Sequence record: MH791411.1
Direction: 5' to 3' (one strand)
Length of the DNA: 64,000 nt
Source: Escherichia phage Ecwhy_1
This document shows positions 3,679-43,150 of the stretch, one piece after another; within the stretch, counting starts at the first letter, position 1, and each line of letters opens with the position of its first letter. A model generated the notes under the pieces. It was given only the letters and a program-made list of their open reading frames with translations. It did no database searches and had not been told where the DNA came from. The position numbers and the translations under genes were made by a program.

Positions 3679-5643
3679 ATGAGTATAAATCGAATTAGAG
3701 GTGATGGTGGTGTAATTATAGATAGTCAGGCATTTCTAGAATTACCTAAAGCACCGACTAAAGAAACCGCTGATGTGGTTAGATCAGGGATGATTAGATA
3801 CAATAAAGGATGGAAAGCATTTGAAGGTGTACTAGACTTTGAAGATGGTTCAATGGCATATCGACGTTTTGCAAACCTAGATGCAAACGGTAAACTTCTT
3901 ACTTCCCAATTACCAGATTCAGTAACTAGTGGTTTACAATTTGTTGGTACATATAATCCCATCCCAGATGATATCGATCCACCTTTAGCACAAACTCCAC
4001 TACCAGCACCATCACCATCGCTTAATGGTGATTATTATGTCGTTCGTGGTATAATGGATGCCGCACAAGCACATTATGAAGCAAATAATCCACAAACAAG
4101 TCCTGTTACATTTACACCTACAAATCCAACTGGACAAGGTAATTGGATTGAAATTTTATATTATGTTGACTCTAATCCAAATATATCTGGTGCTAAACTA
4201 GTAACATACGCTTTTGCTAGAATTATTACTGCATCTATTCCCAGTACTGGACATGATGGCCTTGAAAATTTAGCAACAGATACTGACTTGACCAAACCAT
4301 TTGCATCTGGTGTTCCAATGAACCAAACTGCACTTTCAGATGGTGATTGGATTATTATAACTGAAGATAAGAATATACGTCTTCGTCAGTCAAGAACAAG
4401 CATTTCCGCTGCTTCAGTATTATATGACAATACTGTAATGATTGCAAATCATCGCCAATTTAGAACAAACGCAGGGACCGTTCAAACATCCATAGATAAC
4501 GTTGTGATTGAGTGTTTACGTAGAACTGGCGATTCCATGTATAATGATGGAACAGACGGCTCTGGGCGTTTTGGGGTGGTGTATGGCAGTGCAGCAGCAC
4601 CAGCATTGACATTTAATAATAATCCGTTTGACCCAACGAACAACCCAGGTAATGACCCAACTAAGTGGTCCGATGCTAATACTGGTATATTCCATCCAGC
4701 AGATGATGCAATTGGTTTTACAACAGCCGGAACTGAGCGTGTTAGAATTAATAATGGAACATTAACATTATTCCAAACTACCGCTACACCAGCAGCTACG
4801 CCAGTAATACGTTTTGATAATGCATCAAACACAAACGTAGGGATAAGTGCAAGTAGTAATATTATTTCTTTAAGTTCAATGAATAAAGTTCAAGTTGAAT
4901 TTAAAAATGGTGAATCACATTTTCATGGAAATATTATTGTAGATGGATCAACATCACTAACTGGTGATTTAAACGCAGGTAACATCACTGCCAGCGGGAA
5001 TTTAGTTGTTAAAGGTAATACAACACTAGGCGACACTACTGGTGACACTATTACAGTTAATGGTGTTAGTACTTATAATGCAAATACTAATTTCAATGGA
5101 ACTAATAACAAATTCAAAAACATAAACTTACTAGAGAATGGTGTATTCACATTAGAAAGTACTACAAACCAAAGTGATATAAAACTACTTGGTGCAGACT
5201 TACGTTTCACTATGGGAAGTTATGCTGATGTAAGTATATATGATAACGGTGTTATTCGTACTCGTTTCAACCGATATGGTATTCAATTACCAGTACTGGC
5301 TACAATTGATAACTCAGTTGGTGTTGATGGTATGATTGCATACTCAAATACCGAACGTACATCGATGCAGAAGGTCCAAGGACAATGGGTTCCAATTGGT
5401 TCTGGTTCTGTACGTACTGACCCGTTTACTGCGTCAGCGTGGGTTTTAAACGGCTCATATTACACATTAACAGTAACTGCTAGTAACATAGTAACTGCTG
5501 AAATTCAAGAACTCGTAAGTACTGGTGTTTACACTCGTGTTGAAGTTGATAGTGTTACATTCAATGGAACAAGCGTAGTGTTCAGTATTCCTGCAACTCC
5601 TGATGTGAGATTTGCCGGACGTACACTGGTTACATTAAGATAA
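3679..5643 (+). CDS. tail fibre protein
   Basis: 654 aa; N-terminus (GMIRYNKGWKAFEG) is the type commonly seen at tail-fibre N-termini, followed by Asn/Thr/Gly-rich beta-type sequence; GAGGAAA RBS. Confidence 0.65.
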   Translation: MSINRIRGDGGVIIDSQAFLELPKAPTKETADVVRSGMIRYNKGWKAFEGVLDFEDGSMAYRRFANLDANGKLLTSQLPDSVTSGLQFVGTYNPIPDDIDPPLAQTPLPAPSPSLNGDYYVVRGIMDAAQAHYEANNPQTSPVTFTPTNPTGQGNWIEILYYVDSNPNISGAKLVTYAFARIITASIPSTGHDGLENLATDTDLTKPFASGVPMNQTALSDGDWIIITEDKNIRLRQSRTSISAASVLYDNTVMIANHRQFRTNAGTVQTSIDNVVIECLRRTGDSMYNDGTDGSGRFGVVYGSAAAPALTFNNNPFDPTNNPGNDPTKWSDANTGIFHPADDAIGFTTAGTERVRINNGTLTLFQTTATPAATPVIRFDNASNTNVGISASSNIISLSSMNKVQVEFKNGESHFHGNIIVDGSTSLTGDLNAGNITASGNLVVKGNTTLGDTTGDTITVNGVSTYNANTNFNGTNNKFKNINLLENGVFTLESTTNQSDIKLLGADLRFTMGSYADVSIYDNGVIRTRFNRYGIQLPVLATIDNSVGVDGMIAYSNTERTSMQKVQGQWVPIGSGSVRTDPFTASAWVLNGSYYTLTVTASNIVTAEIQELVSTGVYTRVEVDSVTFNGTSVVFSIPATPDVRFAGRTLVTLR

Positions 5644-24420: not shown

Positions 24421-24639
24421 TTATTTGGAATTATACAAGCAATACAAGTATACCATAGGAGCAAAATGTTCGGTATCAACTAAGTATATTAACTGGGTGT
24501 CATATATACCGTACAAATCTCGAAATTTATCTCTGTACAGCAACAATGACTTATTGTTGTGTGGGTCAACCCAGTACTTTAAGTCATTGTAGTGCAACGT
24601 GTTATTACGGTAACCTGATAATATTTGTTTTTTAGCCAA
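24421..24639 (-). CDS. hypothetical small protein (non-ATG start?)
   Basis: 72-aa ORF whose first codon appears to be TTG with no clear RBS. Confidence 0.3.
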   Translation of the reverse strand: MAKKQILSGYRNNTLHYNDLKYWVDPHNNKSLLLYRDKFRDLYGIYDTQLIYLVDTEHFAPMVYLYCLYNSK

Positions 24640-25009
24640 CTTTTTTACAATTACTTAGTAAATGCATGATGGCATCAGCGGTAAATGGTCCCAGTACTAA
24701 AACTTCTTCTCCATTACCGAAGATACTCAATGGTACAGATTGTTGTCCTGCTAGATATTCGATTTGTTCTAATTCGAAAATGTCATCAGCAGCATAAACA
24801 ACCTGTTCCATTTCATTATCTTTAATCCATGACTGCCAATGTTCTTTAAACTGCTTCGCTTCGTATTCCAGTACATAGTTAGGTGATTCTGGATTGTACT
24901 GATGTAGCATTGTCATACCAGCCATAACCAGTTCTTTTGGTGATGGAGTAGAATCTTTCAGTACTACGATAGCTTGGATAGTTTTAACTTTAACGTTTTG
25001 AGCAGCCAT
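24632..25009 (-). CDS. hypothetical protein
   Basis: 125-aa ORF. Confidence 0.45.
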   Translation of the reverse strand: MAAQNVKVKTIQAIVVLKDSTPSPKELVMAGMTMLHQYNPESPNYVLEYEAKQFKEHWQSWIKDNEMEQVVYAADDIFELEQIEYLAGQQSVPLSIFGNGEEVLVLGPFTADAIMHLLSNCKKVG

Positions 25010-25349: not shown

Positions 25350-25829
25350 TTATTTTAGAATGTATAAGTGTTTTTCTGCATTAACCAGTCTGTGGTCAAT
25401 GATTTCTTTGATAACGTTCCAGTTACCACCGCCTAAATCGGCTCCAATTTTCGGGAAGTGTACATGGATCTCTTGTGGTTCATTTTTAATGAATTCATTC
25501 ATCGAGTTAAATGCAAGGTCAATCGCATCATAACTTACATACTTCTTACCATCATTACCATAATACTCTTGTGTAATGCAGTTTGCAATAATTAAGTTAT
25601 TATTTGGTGCTGCATAGACAACTTCACCCAATTTCAAACCATTCTGATTGGTATAACGTGTATGATACACATCATATGCCAATTGGTGACGCTTTCTTAA
25701 TTCTTTTGCAAAACCAGAACCCATCTTACCCTGAGCGTTACAACCATGAGCGATAATATGTAATGCAGTTTGATCAGTAGTAACAGTACTGAATAAATCA
25801 AACAGATTACCACAATGTTCATGTATCAT
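25350..25829 (-). CDS. macro-domain protein (ADP-ribose binding/processing)
   Basis: 159 aa; IIAHGCNAQGKMGSGFAKEL and HVHFPKIGADLGGGNW match the macro-domain Gly-rich ADP-ribose-binding loops; GGAGAA RBS. Confidence 0.7.
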   Translation of the reverse strand: MIHEHCGNLFDLFSTVTTDQTALHIIAHGCNAQGKMGSGFAKELRKRHQLAYDVYHTRYTNQNGLKLGEVVYAAPNNNLIIANCITQEYYGNDGKKYVSYDAIDLAFNSMNEFIKNEPQEIHVHFPKIGADLGGGNWNVIKEIIDHRLVNAEKHLYILK

Positions 25830-26168: not shown

Positions 26169-26411
26169 TTATTTAGGGTTGCTCGAAACCTCTACTGAAG
26201 CGATGAATGCCAAAATATCATCTTTACTGAAAGCTTCAATAATATAAGCAACCGCTTTATCGTACTGTTCTTTCTTAGTAGTGTATTCTTTCATTTTGTG
26301 AATTTTACGTTGTGCTTTAACTTTTGCAGCTTCCATATCAGGCATTTTAAATTCAACACCCAATGTGTCAGCTAAATGTTTTGCACGAGATGATACTTTA
26401 TCAATATTCAT
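26169..26411 (-). CDS. hypothetical small protein
   Basis: 80-aa ORF. Confidence 0.45.
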   Translation of the reverse strand: MNIDKVSSRAKHLADTLGVEFKMPDMEAAKVKAQRKIHKMKEYTTKKEQYDKAVAYIIEAFSKDDILAFIASVEVSSNPK

Positions 26412-26659
26412 TAATTCCAGCGACCTTCTTTAAGACCTTCAACGAAACCAGTACAGCCACCTGGAACGTAAACATCGTTTACGAAAATTTGTGGAACCTG
26501 TCGTACTGGCTCACCACATAGTTCAGATAGTTTAGCACCATCAATACCAGCGGTAACAATATCGATAAACTCCATATCAAATTTGTTATTTTCACATACT
26601 GCTTTAGCAGTGTCGCAGAATTTACAACCAGTAGTGCGACCATAAATTTTAACTTTCAT
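26411..26659 (-). CDS. glutaredoxin/thioredoxin-like protein (NrdC-like)
   Basis: 82 aa; CxxC active site (GCKFC) near the N-terminus and a C-terminal GG motif, typical small glutaredoxin layout. Confidence 0.7.
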   Translation of the reverse strand: MKVKIYGRTTGCKFCDTAKAVCENNKFDMEFIDIVTAGIDGAKLSELCGEPVRQVPQIFVNDVYVPGGCTGFVEGLKEGRWN

Positions 26660-27059
26660 TTCTTTTCCCTTTATTTCGTTGAAACATTGTAACAGCCTTT
26701 ATTATACTGTTACACATTCGTTCAGTCAAATACTTTTGACAATCTAGTACATCAATGTACATGAACTTATCCAATTCTGGGTGACTTCTACCATATCTGT
26801 TTGTGTAAGTACTTTTACACTCCAACTCTTCTGGTATAGGCTTATCTTTGGCTGTATAGAAAAATAAAACTAAACGTTTCCCCTTTCTATACGATACATC
26901 ACCAAGAAACAGAAGATCATCTTCATCGATTTCATATCCTGTCTCTTCGTAGCATTCACGTACAGCAGCCTCTTTAAATGTTTCTGTACCTTCAGTTTTA
27001 CCTTTAGGTAAGTCCCAGTGATTCTGTCCGTGTTGTATGCCCGATAAGTATCTGACCAT
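26649..27059 (-). CDS. Nudix hydrolase
   Basis: Complete Nudix box GKTEGTETFKEAAVRECYEETGY (Gx5Ex7REUxEExGU); track start 27062 is GTG, ATG at 27059. Confidence 0.75.
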   Translation of the reverse strand: MVRYLSGIQHGQNHWDLPKGKTEGTETFKEAAVRECYEETGYEIDEDDLLFLGDVSYRKGKRLVLFFYTAKDKPIPEELECKSTYTNRYGRSHPELDKFMYIDVLDCQKYLTERMCNSIIKAVTMFQRNKGKRNES

Positions 27060-27168
27060 CACGATAAAATATTATACCACAGCTATAACGCATAATCTTA
27101 TCTCTTTATCATCAAGTGATGTTCAGATACTAGTAATTATATCAGAAGATGTTAACTTGTCCCAGCTT

Positions 27169-28284
27169 TTAGAACATTTGCTTGATTGCTTCAATACGCA
27201 ATTCAGCAACAAAATCACGAATCTCCGATGTTTGGAGTTCACCATCTTTCACTAACTGCTGAATATCAGGTAATTCAACATCAGTATAACGATCATAAAC
27301 TTTAATAATCAAATCTTCAAGTTCAGAATCAATTTCTTTGTTCAAAATGAAGTTTTCCAGTACTTTGTAAAGGAAATCTTCACCACCATTGTTTTTGATA
27401 TTCATATCCAGTAAGATTTGTCCCATTTCAACTGGGGTCTTCTTACGGAAGGTTTTAATATCTTCACGGAAACGCTTGATGTAATTACTAAACTTAACGT
27501 ACTTAACTGGAACCTTAATGGAACCGTTAAGTACTGAATCATTATTTACTTCTTCATTTTCAAGAAGTACTGTCCATAAGAAATATGGTTTATATTCTTC
27601 TGTACAATTTGCAGCGATAGAATCAATTAATTCCAGACGTTTCTTGGTAACTGGAACTGTAGTAAATGCCTTTTCGTAATAACCAAATTGTACCAGAGTT
27701 TTGATAAACTTGGAAGGGTTTTCTTCAGAAAGTGCTTTTTCGAATTCAACAAAAACACGATCTGGAACTAGATGGTCTAGTTCACCAGTACTAACCATAT
27801 CTTTACACATTGTCATAGTATCATCATGGATTGTAAAGTCGGAGTAACGCGTAGCGAAACGGGCCAAACGTAGAACACGCAATGGATCTTCTTTAAAGTG
27901 TTCTGATACATGACGAAGTACTTTGTTCTTGATATCAGCTTTCCCGCCATAAGGGTCGATGTGAATCTGGAGTACTGGATCATATGCAATACTATTGATT
28001 GTGAGATCACGACGATATAGATCTTGTTCTAGTGTCACACCTTTTGTATTCACTTCGAAGCCACCATATCCAGTACCAGTTTTACGCTCAGTACGGGCTA
28101 ATGCGTGTTCATTACCTTCTGGACTTAGATATACAGGGAAATCCTTACCTACTTGCTTGTATCCAATACTTTGCAAGTATTTAATATCGGATTCGGTAGC
28201 ACCGACAATAACATAATCTTTGTCTTTTGCACGGATACCCATTAAACGGTCACGAACGTAGCCACCAACCAAATACTTTTTCAT
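27169..28284 (-). CDS. tRNA nucleotidyltransferase (CCA-adding enzyme / poly(A) polymerase family)
   Basis: 371 aa; N-terminal GGYVRDRLMG and DKDYVIVGAT match the class II CCA-adding/PAP head domain. Confidence 0.7.
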   Translation of the reverse strand: MKKYLVGGYVRDRLMGIRAKDKDYVIVGATESDIKYLQSIGYKQVGKDFPVYLSPEGNEHALARTERKTGTGYGGFEVNTKGVTLEQDLYRRDLTINSIAYDPVLQIHIDPYGGKADIKNKVLRHVSEHFKEDPLRVLRLARFATRYSDFTIHDDTMTMCKDMVSTGELDHLVPDRVFVEFEKALSEENPSKFIKTLVQFGYYEKAFTTVPVTKKRLELIDSIAANCTEEYKPYFLWTVLLENEEVNNDSVLNGSIKVPVKYVKFSNYIKRFREDIKTFRKKTPVEMGQILLDMNIKNNGGEDFLYKVLENFILNKEIDSELEDLIIKVYDRYTDVELPDIQQLVKDGELQTSEIRDFVAELRIEAIKQMF

Positions 28285-28285
28285 A

Positions 28286-28408
28286 TCATTCCCCCATCAA
28301 CCAATCACGTAGACGTTCCCAGAAGCCTTTTGGCTGATATTCTGGATATTCATATTCATCTGTTCCTTGCTCGGAAACACCCCAATCTTCTTCTAATACT
28401 GTAATCAC
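28286..28408 (-). CDS. conserved micro-ORF, copy A (about 40 aa, ends DWLMGE)
   Basis: GTG start with GGAGG RBS; stop TGA one nt before the CCA-enzyme ATG; paralogue of copy B at both nucleotide and protein level. Confidence 0.4.
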   Translation of the reverse strand: MITVLEEDWGVSEQGTDEYEYPEYQPKGFWERLRDWLMGE

Positions 28409-28419
28409 AATGCCTCCAA

Positions 28420-28857
28420 TTAAATTAATCTATCACGTAGACGGTCGTAATATTTTGCATGTATATCTAGTATACACTGAAATGATGGATAGTCAATACT
28501 AAATGTATCATCAATGAACATGTACTGAAGAAGTGTTTCTGGTCCATTATCAACAACTGGTAATGTCCCTTCTTTTTTTGATAGGGTGTGCCACATCAAC
28601 TCACTTTCAATATGGTGAGTTGCGTATGTCAATTCAATCTTACTTTTTCGTAGTAAAATTAACAATTCATCATTGTCATCGAGTGCATTACGAAATTTAA
28701 TACGAACTGTACCCTGGAAATTATTAGTGTACATAACACGATGATGATTGTATGAAATTAAACCACGTCTTTCAGTACTGATTTCATGTTCAGCAAAGTA
28801 CTTTAACGTTTCATTAAATTTTGGAATTTTACTTGCGTCCACCAATGTAATCCTCAT
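28420..28857 (-). CDS. hypothetical protein, member of a tandem paralogue pair
   Basis: C-terminal LLQYMFIDDTFSIDY parallels YLQYQFIDDTFGFDF in the neighbouring gene; start 28857 or 28863 uncertain. Confidence 0.5.
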   Translation of the reverse strand: MRITLVDASKIPKFNETLKYFAEHEISTERRGLISYNHHRVMYTNNFQGTVRIKFRNALDDNDELLILLRKSKIELTYATHHIESELMWHTLSKKEGTLPVVDNGPETLLQYMFIDDTFSIDYPSFQCILDIHAKYYDRLRDRLI

Positions 28858-29236
28858 ATACATGATATACGTTCATTATACTATTATATAGTTCAAAGTC
28901 AAATCCAAATGTGTCATCAATGAACTGGTATTGCAGATATTCTTCATATGAAGCATCAATTGGTAATGATCCAGCACGAATATCATCTGATTTAAAATCG
29001 TCAATGTATCTTAATGTTATGTCTTCATCAACAGTAATATCTATCATCAACGTATCGTCACTGTACCAAAGGTTATGTATACGGATGTAAAGTTTCTTAG
29101 CACGATTAAAACTAGATACATTGGTATTGCGATGGAGTTTATCTAAGTTGAAGTAAAAACCAGGCTCGTTTTTACTTATGTTTTTCATATGTTCTGCAAT
29201 CGAATCAATTATATAATCAATGTTGAATGTTCTCAT
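28829..29236 (-). CDS. hypothetical protein, member of a tandem paralogue pair
   Basis: Paralogue of 28420..28857; the ATG at 29236 overlaps the upstream stop (ATGA); track start 29242 is TTG. Confidence 0.5.
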   Translation of the reverse strand: MRTFNIDYIIDSIAEHMKNISKNEPGFYFNLDKLHRNTNVSSFNRAKKLYIRIHNLWYSDDTLMIDITVDEDITLRYIDDFKSDDIRAGSLPIDASYEEYLQYQFIDDTFGFDFELYNSIMNVYHVYEDYIGGRK

Positions 29237-29418
29237 AAACAAATCTCATAGCGGTTTGTGTTTGGATTGTAGCAATAGGTATCATTAATTTTAACACCAG
29301 GTTTAAGTGTTATTGTTGTTCCTACTTCAGTACTGGGTTCTGCATCACAATAAATCATCACACCAACGCCACAGATTAAAGCTAAGATACAAATAATAGC
29401 ACATATTGTATATTCCAT
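29233..29418 (-). CDS. small membrane protein
   Basis: 61 aa from the ATG at 29418; N-terminal hydrophobic helix ICAIICILALICGVGVMIY; start overlaps the stop of micro-ORF B (TGATG). Confidence 0.45.
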   Translation of the reverse strand: MEYTICAIICILALICGVGVMIYCDAEPSTEVGTTITLKPGVKINDTYCYNPNTNRYEICL

Positions 29419-30361: not shown

Positions 30362-30694
30362 TTACTCTTCGTCTTCAGTCAAGTCTTCTTGAACTGGATG
30401 TTCGGGGTGGTTACGGCGATGCAATTTGATGCTTTTGTCTTTACCTAAGACAGTTTCCATTTTTTCAAATGAATCACCAATTGCTTTGTATAAATCTGCA
30501 TCATCGGCGGTGACAATCTTACCACCTGATGTTAAAGTTACGGAATATTGATTCTTATGCTCTTTCTTCACATGAACACCGATATAAAGTACTGAAGAAT
30601 CACTAAACTTCGTTAGTGCATTTGCTTCTGCATGAATCGCGTCATTGATTGCTGGAGTAATATCAACATTACCTTGGATAACTAAATCTAGCAT
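30362..30694 (-). CDS. hpf: ribosome hibernation promoting factor / RaiA-family protein
   Basis: 110 aa; aligns along its length with E. coli HPF as I recall it (ITG-N-V-ITxA near the N-terminus, a G-x-I-xA-x-DxYxAIDxxxxKL core, Lys-rich tail). Confidence 0.7.
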   Translation of the reverse strand: MLDLVIQGNVDITPAINDAIHAEANALTKFSDSSVLYIGVHVKKEHKNQYSVTLTSGGKIVTADDADLYKAIGDSFEKMETVLGKDKSIKLHRRNHPEHPVQEDLTEDEE

Positions 30695-31813: not shown

Positions 31814-32224
31814 TTAATCGTAGTATGTTCTACCAATGGTGATGTGATATTTGAAATATTTAGATGCCAAACCCAGTTCATTACGAATATGTGCAATGAA
31901 ATCATCTTCAAACTCTATGATAAAGAATGACCCAGGTTTCTTATTGTCTTTTACTTCTTCGATGAAAGGATCGAACTTAATCTTAACTTTCATACCATCG
32001 TACTTTTTCCAGTACTCTGGATTTGGTGGCACTTCACCACGAACGATACTGACATGTGCTCCCCATTGTGGGTCTTTAATATCAATATGTAAGTCAGTTC
32101 TGATGAAGTACTGGTAGTATCGAACCAACTGTAATGGAAGTTGCAGTACTAACCAGAAGTCCTTCTTCTTTTTCATAGTGCCACGATCTGGATCATACAC
32201 CAGAGTTCCTTCCATTTCAATCAT
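31814..32224 (-). CDS. 2H-phosphoesterase-like protein (LigT/cyclic-phosphodiesterase fold)
   Basis: 136 aa with two H-x-[ST]-x motifs (AHVSIVRG and YHITIGRT) at the spacing expected for the 2H superfamily. Confidence 0.5.
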   Translation of the reverse strand: MIEMEGTLVYDPDRGTMKKKKDFWLVLQLPLQLVRYYQYFIRTDLHIDIKDPQWGAHVSIVRGEVPPNPEYWKKYDGMKVKIKFDPFIEEVKDNKKPGSFFIIEFEDDFIAHIRNELGLASKYFKYHITIGRTYYD

Positions 32225-37050: not shown

Positions 37051-37066
37051 TTTTTAATCCTTTTTT

Positions 37067-37684
37067 TTATTTTTCAAGTTTATCAATAATAGAAGGTGAT
37101 ACTTTTACATTGAATTCAGAATCAGGAAAATCTTTAGAAAATGAATCAATTTGTTCTTGTGAAAGTTCTTCTTTTTGTGGAAATAACATTTTAACTAAAT
37201 TTTTACCACATTCAATTGCTTCATCATACGACATAGTTTCCCATGTTCCATGCCAAGTACTAGGTTCATATTCTGTCAGTACAGAAATGAAATCAATATC
37301 ATCGGGTGTATACCAAACAGCATTTTGATTCCCTGATGGTGCTGATTGATTTTTACCTAATAAAACAATTGGCTTTTCATAAGGAATGTTAAATATCAAC
37401 CCAGATTCTAAGTTAAGAACAGTTTGAATAGATGAACCCTCCAATTTTGGAGTAATAGTACCATCCTTAAAGAAAATTTGTACATGACCCAAGAGTGGGG
37501 TTTCATATGGTGTAAGTACATTTTCAGAAACTGATGTGGGTTTTGCCGTTGTGAAAATACCAGATGGGGTGACCATTAATTTATTATCAAAATTCTGATA
37601 ATGCAATTCACTATCCACATCATAATGATAAATGTCTAGATTTGGTTGAGATAGTAGTAATTTTGCTAAATCATGAGATTTCAT
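37067..37684 (-). CDS. hypothetical protein
   Basis: Track ORF starts with GTG at 37714 inside the terminator hairpin; the ATG at 37684 (MKSHDLAKLL) has a GGAGAAA RBS. Confidence 0.5.
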   Translation of the reverse strand: MKSHDLAKLLLSQPNLDIYHYDVDSELHYQNFDNKLMVTPSGIFTTAKPTSVSENVLTPYETPLLGHVQIFFKDGTITPKLEGSSIQTVLNLESGLIFNIPYEKPIVLLGKNQSAPSGNQNAVWYTPDDIDFISVLTEYEPSTWHGTWETMSYDEAIECGKNLVKMLFPQKEELSQEQIDSFSKDFPDSEFNVKVSPSIIDKLEK

Positions 37685-37695
37685 TTTATTTCTCC

Positions 37696-37725
37696 AAAAG
37701 AAAAGGAGAGTCACAATGACTCTCC
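37696..37725 (-). terminator. rho-independent terminator
   Basis: Hairpin ggagagtca-caa-tgactctcc (37705-37725); on the minus strand followed by ttttctttt. Confidence 0.65.
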
Positions 37726-41911: not shown

Positions 41912-43150
41912 TTATTTTTTACTGTACCATTGCATTTCACGGATATCTAATAGTACCTTCGTAGCCAACTTTATGTTTGGTCGCTTCGGTAGATGGGTCT
42001 TATGATACGCCACATTTCGGATGTAGTCAACCTTTTCGTTGAAATAATCCATAACTTCTTGATACAACCACTTCCCGTTACGAATGTCCATCAACATAGC
42101 AGCATCCGGTCGGTGAACTTGGATGATACCAGTTTCAAGTGCTTCCTGTGCTGTATTCAGCAGCCTGACTGTATGCATTGCGTGTTTACAATCATAACCG
42201 TGGTGTGATTCAAGAATAGCACGTTTGGCATTACGATTCTGCTTCCATTTGTGATAACTCTTACGGTTCTCACTATTTTCTTTGTATTCTTTTTCATTGA
42301 ATTTTACAATGAGTTCAGGACGAACTTTCAATTCTTCTGTAGTACGTTCTTTGTTGAAGTAACGTAGTGAACCATCAGCATTCACTGTACTTTCATTCGG
42401 GTTGATAATTACCCCAAAGATGTTTTCACCGTAATGGATTAGTTCATATCCAGAATTGTAATTCAATAAATTGAAATCACGATCTAATACTTTATCAGTA
42501 CTATAATTATGTACTAAACGTACAAAATGATATTGTTTCAATGCTTGTGTTGAAACTAATTGTAATGAAGTATCACGCATGTATTTTTCAAAATCAATTT
42601 TTGTAGCATTGAATGGGTGAAGATTGGATTTATTCAAACGGTCAACCAAATACTGCGGAAATGTATCATACATCCATGAAAGTACTTCGTCAACTGGATG
42701 TTCTTCTAAAATTTCATTTAGTTTACGTTCAGCAATTCGTTCCTTATCGAGCCAGCCGTGGTGATTAGACATACGCTTAACCTGATTGTATGCATATCCA
42801 CTGTATGAGTGTGCAATCTTTGAACTCAATAATTGCTGATTGAATGAGCGTAGATAGTCATAGATTTCAGTACTTTCTACGATGTGTTCCGGTTTAACCC
42901 ATAGTGATTCAAGAATGTTTGGGTTAGCTTCAGTATACAGACTTAAGTACTGATTGATTTCATAAAATTTAGTATCTTCTTCAGAAGTATCTGAAACTTC
43001 CTTAACATTAAAAAAAGGAGTTAGGATATATTCTTTGTTTGCAAGGAAGATACCACGATAATCTGTATCACTTTCTGGTGTGCTTGTGCCATACGCCTGT
43101 GAACCAGCTAAGTGTTTCACAATAGTTTGTTCTAGAAAATTGTTTTTCAT
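41912..43150 (-). CDS. Pol-beta-superfamily nucleotidyltransferase
   Basis: 412 aa; N-terminal GSQAYGTSTPESDTDYRGIF fits the GS-x(9-13)-DxD nucleotidyltransferase signature. Substrate unknown. Confidence 0.6.
   Translation of the reverse strand: MKNNFLEQTIVKHLAGSQAYGTSTPESDTDYRGIFLANKEYILTPFFNVKEVSDTSEEDTKFYEINQYLSLYTEANPNILESLWVKPEHIVESTEIYDYLRSFNQQLLSSKIAHSYSGYAYNQVKRMSNHHGWLDKERIAERKLNEILEEHPVDEVLSWMYDTFPQYLVDRLNKSNLHPFNATKIDFEKYMRDTSLQLVSTQALKQYHFVRLVHNYSTDKVLDRDFNLLNYNSGYELIHYGENIFGVIINPNESTVNADGSLRYFNKERTTEELKVRPELIVKFNEKEYKENSENRKSYHKWKQNRNAKRAILESHHGYDCKHAMHTVRLLNTAQEALETGIIQVHRPDAAMLMDIRNGKWLYQEVMDYFNEKVDYIRNVAYHKTHLPKRPNIKLATKVLLDIREMQWYSKK

Follow-up and report, generated by a model that had tools for sequence, protein, structure and literature searches.

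The window analysed here (the whole stretch of 64,000 nucleotides from Escherichia phage Ecwhy_1) contains an open reading frame of 371 codons that runs from ATG to stop and occupies exactly 27169..28284 on the minus strand, with the stop codon at 27169-27171. It is part of a long run of minus-strand genes. The stop of an upstream ORF of 40 codons overlaps the ATG of the gene (gaaTGAtATG), which is preceded by a G-rich run; DarG-like macrodomain and NUDIX genes are found at most 2 kb away. A promoter scan of positions 26300-29400 returned 16 promoter-like sites against 13.9 expected and a terminator scan of the same interval yielded none, so that a transcription unit is not definable. The features of relevance, each with the evidence on which it is based, are as follows:

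27169..28284, minus strand: predicted class II CCA-adding enzyme gene (tRNA nucleotidyltransferase), 371 aa; ORF, Pfam, PHROG and NCBIfam
27913..28275, minus strand: head domain with the Pol-beta-type catalytic core, residues 4-124; Pfam, 74-sequence alignment, alignment with E. coli Cca and MAFFT blocks
27664..27840, minus strand: neck region, residues 149-207 (PF12627); Pfam and alignment
27172..27672, minus strand: C-terminal helical body and tail, residues 205-371; Pfam null result, composition, hhalign and AF2 model
31814..32224, minus strand: candidate 2H-SAK-like phosphoesterase, 136 aa; PF22547 at 23.4 bits (cut-off 27), HVS at residues 57-59 and HIT at 127-129
41912..43150, minus strand: RlaP-family (RNA ligase-associated Pol-beta) nucleotidyltransferase, 412 aa; PF10127 at 63 bits (cut-off 23) and PHROG 388 'nucleotidyltransferase'

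The initial annotation had read the first of these as a class II tRNA nucleotidyltransferase, and this reading is borne out by the head and neck domains, the profile and CCA-model scores and the match in fold given below. Pfam recognizes the PolyA_pol head domain (PF01743, residues 4-124, E 5.7e-19) and the PolyA_pol_RNAbd domain (PF12627, residues 149-207, E 2.1e-9), and no further domain in the 371-aa protein. The profile of PHROG 2244 ('tRNA nucleotidyltransferase') aligns over residues 1-370, corresponding to positions 3-387 of 392, with 392 bits and an E-value of 9.1e-117. All five motifs of the class can be located. The head carries motif A (G7 G8 x V R11 D12 and D21 x D23), motif B (R91 R92 D93) and motif C (D110 P111 .. 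G114 .. D117); motif D (E132 D133 P134 x R136) lies just upstream of the neck and motif E (R176 V177 x x E180) within it. Between motifs A and B a flexible loop is present at residues 67-76 (RKTGTGYGGF).

Conservation was assessed in an alignment of 74 sequences with identities down to 37%, in which 45 columns are invariant. These include G7, G8, R11, D12 and D23 of motif A, R91 R92 D93 of motif B, D110, P111, G114 and D117 of motif C, E132, D133, P134 and R136 of motif D, and R176 and E180 of motif E. D21 of motif A is conserved in at least 90% of the 74 sequences and is thus not fully invariant. The EDxxR template of motif D is common to CCA enzymes and bacterial poly(A) polymerase I (PAP I) and therefore does not discriminate between them (PMC2532741). 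The loop is more informative: it is needed for addition of the terminal A, is missing from CC-adding enzymes and is dispensable in PAP (PMC2532741). Its residues G72 and Y73 are invariant in the 74 sequences and are equivalent to G70 and Y71 of E. coli Cca, mutation of which leaves CC addition only (PMC2532741). The presence of the loop, with both residues invariant, thus favors an enzyme that makes the complete CCA end over one that stops at CC, and over a PAP.

Scores against the NCBIfam models point in the same direction. The four gammaproteobacterial CCA equivalog models match with 281, 243, 221 and 213 bits, the highest being PRK10885 (E. coli-type CCA), which covers residues 1-204 only and stays below its curated cut-off of 451. 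All NCBIfam matches are confined to residues 1 to approximately 210 and no curated whole-protein cut-off is reached; the shortfall relative to the CCA equivalog cut-off is attributable to the diverged C-terminus and not to the catalytic core. The A-adding enzyme model yields 67 bits, and the poly(A) polymerase (PcnB) models remain far under their cut-offs (TIGR01942 with 91 bits against 306, PRK11623 with 51 against 702), so the comparison with poly(A) polymerases proposed in the initial annotation comes out in favor of a CCA enzyme. Homology of the N-terminal half alone is nonetheless not proof of the product, since chimera experiments show that the C-terminal part helps to decide between CCA and poly(A) synthesis in this enzyme class (PMC2532741). 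By homology, we place the protein among the class II tRNA nucleotidyltransferases, with a predicted CCA-adding activity, and not among the poly(A) polymerases.

The C-terminal region (residues 205-371) differs markedly from that of the host enzyme. Whether an HD domain is present, a question raised by the initial annotation, can be answered in the negative: the phage C-terminus gives no match to the HD domain (PF01966) even at E<=10, whereas E. coli Cca under the same Pfam test shows a clear match (54 bits, residues 229-328). The last 167 residues contain no histidine at all, and at the positions of the HD motif the alignment shows other residues, together with a deletion of some 25-30 residues compared with HD-type Cca. 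Without an HD domain and without histidines in this part, the phage protein is predicted to be incapable of the HD-dependent phosphatase and 2',3'-cyclic phosphodiesterase activities. Loss of the HD domain is not unusual in itself, as bacteria also possess HD-less Cca proteins of 360-370 aa. When the phage C-terminus was set against HD-type C-termini in a profile-profile alignment (hhalign), the match was collinear but weak (E 6e-4, probability 28%). A degenerate HD fold was considered and, at a probability of only 28%, not adopted; we say only that the region stands where the HD domain lies in E. coli Cca. Within the phage clade it is conserved and carries a clade-specific motif, NNGGE[DE]FLYK.

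An alignment-based AF2 model of the protein reaches a pLDDT of 94.1 and a pTM of 0.87, with an all-helical C-terminal region at pLDDT > 90. The best PDB matches found by Foldseek are structures of the Thermotoga maritima class II CCA-adding enzyme (3H38, and 5HC9 with tRNA; E ~1e-16 to 1e-14, TM 0.71 over ~387-404 columns). Further down come the A-adding enzyme of Aquifex, CCA enzymes of Bacillus and human, and PAP I (TM ~0.62); the full-length matches to CCA-adding enzymes have TM values of 0.69-0.71. In the predicted model the seahorse-like architecture of head, neck, body and tail is kept, including the helical body and tail.

A database search shows full-length relatives of ~370 aa with 40-99% identity in jumbo phages of Escherichia, Klebsiella, Cronobacter, Erwinia, Salmonella and Xanthomonas, and in many metagenomic contigs. 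Among these are the tRNA nucleotidyltransferases of Rak2-like jumbo phages (RaK2 gp031, 121Q gp539, GAP32, PBECO4 and Sharanji WNN14700.1), where the CCA gene has the same neighbourhood, next to NUDIX and glutaredoxin genes. There is no difference of substance with these enzymes and the gene described here is another allele of the same gene. The next-best relatives are bacterial Cca proteins (57-61% identity), which cover only the N-terminal ~55% of the protein. E. coli Cca (b3056, a fused nucleotidyltransferase/phosphohydrolase) shows 51% identity over residues 1-210 in BLASTP and nothing significant beyond; it shares motifs A-E and a loop (R65-F74, RKSGSGYTGF) with 7 of 10 positions identical to the phage loop, but the phage protein is 41 residues shorter and lacks the HD domain. 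The short HD-less bacterial Cca proteins (PRK13296 and PRK13297 with 360-364 positions; ~355-380 aa) resemble the phage enzyme in length, in the missing HD motif and in the catalytic half, where the 57-61% identity is found. Their C-terminal halves, however, align poorly (most cover ~55% of the query) and the NNGGE[DE]FLYK motif is missing there. The T. maritima enzyme is the best PDB match by sequence as well (E 8.5e-22), at only 22-24% identity. E. coli PcnB belongs to the same superfamily and shares the Pfam head and neck domains and EDxxR, but its models score far more weakly than those of CCA enzymes and the loop that is conserved in the phage protein is not needed by PAP.

The gene, the enzyme assignment and the idea of a repair kit are already known from GenBank, PHROG 2244, the RaK2 paper of 2013 and a survey of 2021. 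GenBank records carry the label 'CCA tRNA nucleotidyltransferase' in phage Turkey3 and tRNA nucleotidyltransferase in fEgEco12, PBECO4 and 121Q, among others, and the RaK2 authors proposed the same tRNA maturation rationale for gp031 (PMC3622015). Literature searches for an assayed CCA-adding enzyme of a phage, or for a counter-defence role, yielded genome descriptions and the 2021 survey and nothing else; no published assay of a homologue from the phage clade was among them.

To place the gene in its genomic context we turn to the nearest complete genome. Around the CCA gene, a stretch of 4 kb shows 99.5% identity to Escherichia phage Turkey3 (PQ471515.1, 361,208 bp) and 84-98% identity to about 30 other PBECO4/121Q (Asteriusvirus) jumbo coliphages. 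The whole window is collinear with Turkey3 at ~99% identity (reverse strand, from ~150,401 to ~87,026, apart from a single insertion of 636 bp) and makes up ~18%, roughly one sixth, of the genome of a Rak2/121Q-like jumbo coliphage. The earlier remark that the 64 kb contain no tRNA is literally true: ARAGORN detects no tRNA or tmRNA in the window, and an Rfam scan of its full length gives no family at the gathering threshold. The puzzle that it implied, a CCA enzyme without tRNA genes, dissolves in the whole-genome search that had been suggested. ARAGORN finds exactly seven tRNA genes in Turkey3, the same seven that are annotated in the record, in one cluster at 292,716-297,180, some 170 kb from the CCA gene. 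That the window has no tRNA genes thus reflects its size, in a genome of ~360 kb.

The seven Turkey3 tRNAs are Ser-UGA, Ser-GCU, Ser-ACU, Met-CAU, Asn-GUU and two copies of Thr-UGU. CCA is encoded in four of the genes (Ser-UGA, Ser-GCU, Met and Asn, with the discriminator followed by CCA) and is missing from the other three (Ser-ACU and both Thr-UGU, in which discriminator and C are followed by AAA), which thus need CCA to be added. Similar gaps occur in 121Q (Gly-UCC, Ser-ACU and Thr-UGU) and in Klebsiella phage KP13-7 (Leu-UAA, Arg-UCU and Ser-GCU), bringing the proportion of tRNA genes without encoded CCA to ~40-50% in the three genomes. Related phages also carry tRNAs, with six reported for fEgEco12 (PMC13070987) and seven for Sharanji (PMC11895373). 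In E. coli, on the other hand, CCA is encoded in all tRNA genes (PMC5372718). The combination of CCA-less phage tRNAs with host tRNA genes that all encode CCA offers a concrete rationale for a phage-borne enzyme, which is not the same as proof. The host already has a Cca protein, and according to work by Deutscher and McClain phage T4 reportedly matures its CCA-less tRNAs through the host enzyme; a phage copy is therefore not obviously required. A link between tRNA-Ser(ACU) and a phage 'tRNA adenosine deaminase' was considered and rejected: the deaminase that we examined scores as dCMP/ComEB type (70 bits) and not as TadA (32 bits), and the Sharanji gene published under the name of tRNA adenosine deaminase (WNN14772.1) may be a different one.

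The initial annotation had further suggested that the enzyme forms a dispersed RNA repair toolkit with a 2H-phosphoesterase-like protein and a Pol-beta nucleotidyltransferase. The latter (41912..43150) is confirmed as a member of the RlaP family, well above the cut-off. For the 2H-like protein the case is mixed: its own PF22547 score falls short of the cut-off, but 23 of 25 homologues carry the domain and both HxS/T motifs are conserved in the family (H57, H127 and T129 invariant, S59 in at least 90%). A Foldseek search with the model of this protein puts Usb1 and LigT on top, though not significantly (E 0.04-1, TM 0.37-0.46). PDB sequence searches with the 2H-like and RlaP proteins gave nothing meaningful, and a PADLOC scan of these two and the CCA protein showed no relatives of defence systems. 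Turkey3 also has, beyond the part that corresponds to the window, genes for a T4-type RNA ligase 1 (Rnl1; PF09511 and PF20819) and for a polynucleotide kinase with a PNKP phosphatase domain (Pnkp), ~14-17 kb beyond the window end in Turkey3 positions. Rnl1 is located ~36 kb from the RlaP gene in the same genome, which amounts to co-occurrence and not to one operon.

Such a set has been described before: according to Iyer et al. (2021), the RNA-repair apparatus of jumbo phages comprises RNA ligases, PNK, 2H, RlaP, CCA-adding enzyme, Thg1 and peptidyl-tRNA hydrolase (PMC7824862). The RlaP ORF is a possible member of the same set, in the role proposed there. The toolkit idea is thus compatible with the genome, with RlaP and the candidate 2H-like protein in the window and Rnl1 and Pnkp in the nearest genome, and with the published set; that the members act together is inferred from their co-occurrence only, the genes being tens of kilobases apart. 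No operon link connects the CCA gene with either the tRNA cluster or the repair genes, given the distances of ~170 kb and tens of kilobases, respectively. The 'peptidyl-tRNA hydrolase' label that Turkey3 attaches to window positions 24632..25009 was not reproduced by Pfam, NCBIfam or PDB sequence searches, and this ORF was left out of the repair kit.

Based on these observations we consider it likely that the product of the gene is a class II CCA-adding enzyme that works without a template and has no phosphohydrolase activity, and which would finish the CCA-less phage tRNAs and maintain tRNA 3' ends during infection; activity, substrates and timing are all inferred here. The steps of the mechanism are taken from homology to solved and mutated enzymes. 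The motif A carboxylates D21 and D23 would hold the catalytic metals and motif B (RRD) would select ribonucleotides, while the EDxxR residues of motif D are expected to pair with the base of CTP and then of ATP. The flexible loop (residues 67-76) would drive the switch from C to A, and the helical body and tail would grip the tRNA by its top half and thereby stop synthesis after C74-C75-A76. HD phosphohydrolase activity, as found in the host Cca, would be absent. Two tasks are the most likely for such an enzyme. It may finish the phage Ser-ACU and the two Thr-UGU tRNAs after trimming of their 3' trailers, and it may restore 3' ends of tRNAs, both of the host and of the phage, that fray or are trimmed by nucleases in the course of the long jumbo-phage cycle, presumably in concert with the end-healing genes of the phage (Rnl1, Pnkp, RlaP and 2H-like).

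It might be argued that the main value of the enzyme lies in counter-defence, namely in rebuilding tRNA 3' ends hit by anti-phage nucleases or toxins of the host, with maturation of phage tRNAs as a secondary benefit. This differs from the explanation above in emphasis only. It would fit the co-occurrence of Rnl1, Pnkp, RlaP and the 2H-like gene with the CCA gene in one genome, the placement of CCA-adding enzymes in repair against host RNases by the jumbo-phage survey (PMC7824862) and the nearby DarG-like macrodomain and NUDIX genes, which suggest a neighbourhood rich in conflict genes. Nonetheless, no known E. coli defence that removes CCA ends was linked to the phage in this analysis, PADLOC and the gene order (no operon link) provide no connection either, and the conserved CCA-less phage tRNAs are a simpler reason for the gene. 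Moreover, the enzyme has no HD phosphatase to clear the 2',3'-cyclic or 3'-phosphate ends that many RNases leave. We therefore regard a primarily defensive role as rather unlikely. If the protein departs from the expected function, the one likely site is the C-terminus, which is diverged, free of histidine, well folded in the model and conserved within the Rak2-like jumbo phages. This domain might direct the enzyme to other targets, for example to phage tRNAs or to tRNA 3' ends damaged by anti-phage effectors of the host, which would turn the protein into a dedicated counter-defence enzyme with altered substrate choice instead of a plain copy of the host Cca; we judge this improbable.

The same divergence could also have changed the product or substrate, yielding a poly(A)-type or other RNA 3'-tailing enzyme that could, for example, target host RNAs for decay. 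Bacterial PAP I has motifs A-E, including EDxxR, in common with CCA enzymes, which reaction is carried out depends in part on the C-terminal portion (PMC2532741), the phage C-terminus has no significant BLASTP similarity to E. coli Cca and PAP I structures match the model as well. Yet the CCA model outscores the PcnB models (281 bits, as opposed to 91 and 51), the flexible loop is conserved, the best full-length structural matches are CCA-adding enzymes (one in complex with tRNA) and the C-terminus is collinear with those of Cca proteins, which makes such a change very unlikely. A partial enzyme, adding only CC or only A and leaving completion of the 3' end to the host Cca, deserves similarly little weight. 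Split CC- and A-adding enzymes of some bacteria do share the fold, and Aquifex A-adding structures are among the matches, but the loop that CC-adding enzymes lack is present and resembles that of E. coli, the A-adding model scores only 67 bits and the catalytic half is closest to full CCA enzymes of proteobacteria. Finally, the lost HD catalytic residues and the deletion relative to HD-type Cca could be taken as signs of decay, the gene being a non-functional remnant of a captured host cca. This is effectively refuted by the pattern of conservation and has a negligible probability: a full-length ORF is kept from 99% to ~40% identity across jumbo phages of six host genera, the 45 invariant columns include catalytic residues (with D21 at 90% or more), the C-terminal domain folds confidently in the AF2 model, and HD-less enzymes of this length exist in bacteria.

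For the putative CCA-adding enzyme of this phage, the significance of the analysis is mostly one of correct annotation. When only 64 kb of a 360-kb genome are in view, failure to find the partner of a feature there does not show that the genome lacks it. As the phage enzyme lacks the HD phosphohydrolase, the label 'multifunctional CCA protein', which is overstated for Sharanji, should not be transferred to it, and any clearing of 3'-phosphates and cyclic phosphates must come from other phage genes, such as Pnkp and the 2H-like protein. With a considerable share of the tRNA genes in three phage genomes lacking an encoded CCA, and hosts that encode it in every tRNA gene, these jumbo phages have a concrete and testable reason to carry an enzyme of their own.

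The region of the CCA gene (the predicted CCA-adding enzyme, a class II tRNA nucleotidyltransferase) is flanked by an S30AE-type ORF and a NUDIX ORF, and its surroundings in the window contain the following features:

24632..25009 (-), 125-aa ORF annotated as peptidyl-tRNA hydrolase in Escherichia phage Turkey3, the nearest complete genome (PHROG 14786, no function label)
25350..25829 (-), 159-aa macrodomain protein, DarG antitoxin-like by profile matches
26649..27062 (-), NUDIX hydrolase (PF00293), labelled in Turkey3 as an mRNA-decapping-type hydrolase
28286..28408, conserved 40-aa ORF (PHROG 34272)
28420..28863 and 28829..29242 (both -), overlapping paralogous ORFs (both PHROG 20693, no function label)
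30362..30694 (-), ribosome hibernation/S30AE-type protein (PF02482, E 7e-11)

An IF-3 gene is present elsewhere in the phage genome; together, the S30AE-type, NUDIX and IF-3 genes show a wider phage set of translation-related genes. The peptidyl-tRNA hydrolase label of 24632..25009 was found to be unsupported in Pfam, NCBIfam and PDB sequence searches. The paralogous pair, which shares the motif QY.FIDDTF, is located just upstream of the CCA gene, with the 40-aa ORF between the pair and the CCA start.

The macrodomain ORF and the CCA gene are separated by approximately 1.3 kb, a stretch that holds the NUDIX and a glutaredoxin gene. The macrodomain protein is matched by DarG in PADLOC (E 3.4e-9), by antitoxin_DarG in NCBIfam (26.6 bits) and by Macro in Pfam (E 0.003), and is assigned to PHROG 335 ('phosphatase'). 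The putative DarG-like protein could undo ADP-ribosylation by a DarT-type host defence.

Compared with Turkey3, the window carries a 636-bp insertion (37051-37686), the genomes being otherwise 99% identical. The insertion falls in one ORF, for which the Pfam search gave no match:

37067..37714 (-), 215-aa ORF (PHROG 18200, no function label)

The make-up of the tRNA cluster varies among close relatives: relative to Turkey3, the cluster of the related jumbo coliphage 121Q additionally has Gly-UCC and an annotated Leu-UAA, and lacks Ser-GCU and the second Thr. An A-rich tract is seen 3' of every Turkey3 tRNA gene. These flanks read either CCA-AA or C-AAA, so that the CCA-less ends resemble CCA ends short of one C. 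Two features of the cluster (L003 42716-47180, L003 being a Turkey3 segment) are of note:

L003 44999-45523, HNH homing endonuclease gene splitting the cluster
L003 45585-45676 (Turkey3 295585-295676), tRNA-Ser, anticodon ACU; in 121Q at 4526-4617 of segment L005

This tRNA-Ser(ACU) is common to Turkey3 and 121Q, and its 3' CCA is not encoded by the gene. The wobble position is an unmodified-looking A; A34 is uncommon in bacterial-type decoding. One deaminase in the phage genome was considered as a possible TadA (tRNA adenosine deaminase), but this protein looks like a dCMP deaminase instead. If A34 of tRNA-Ser(ACU) were deaminated to inosine, the Arg codon AGA would also be decoded.
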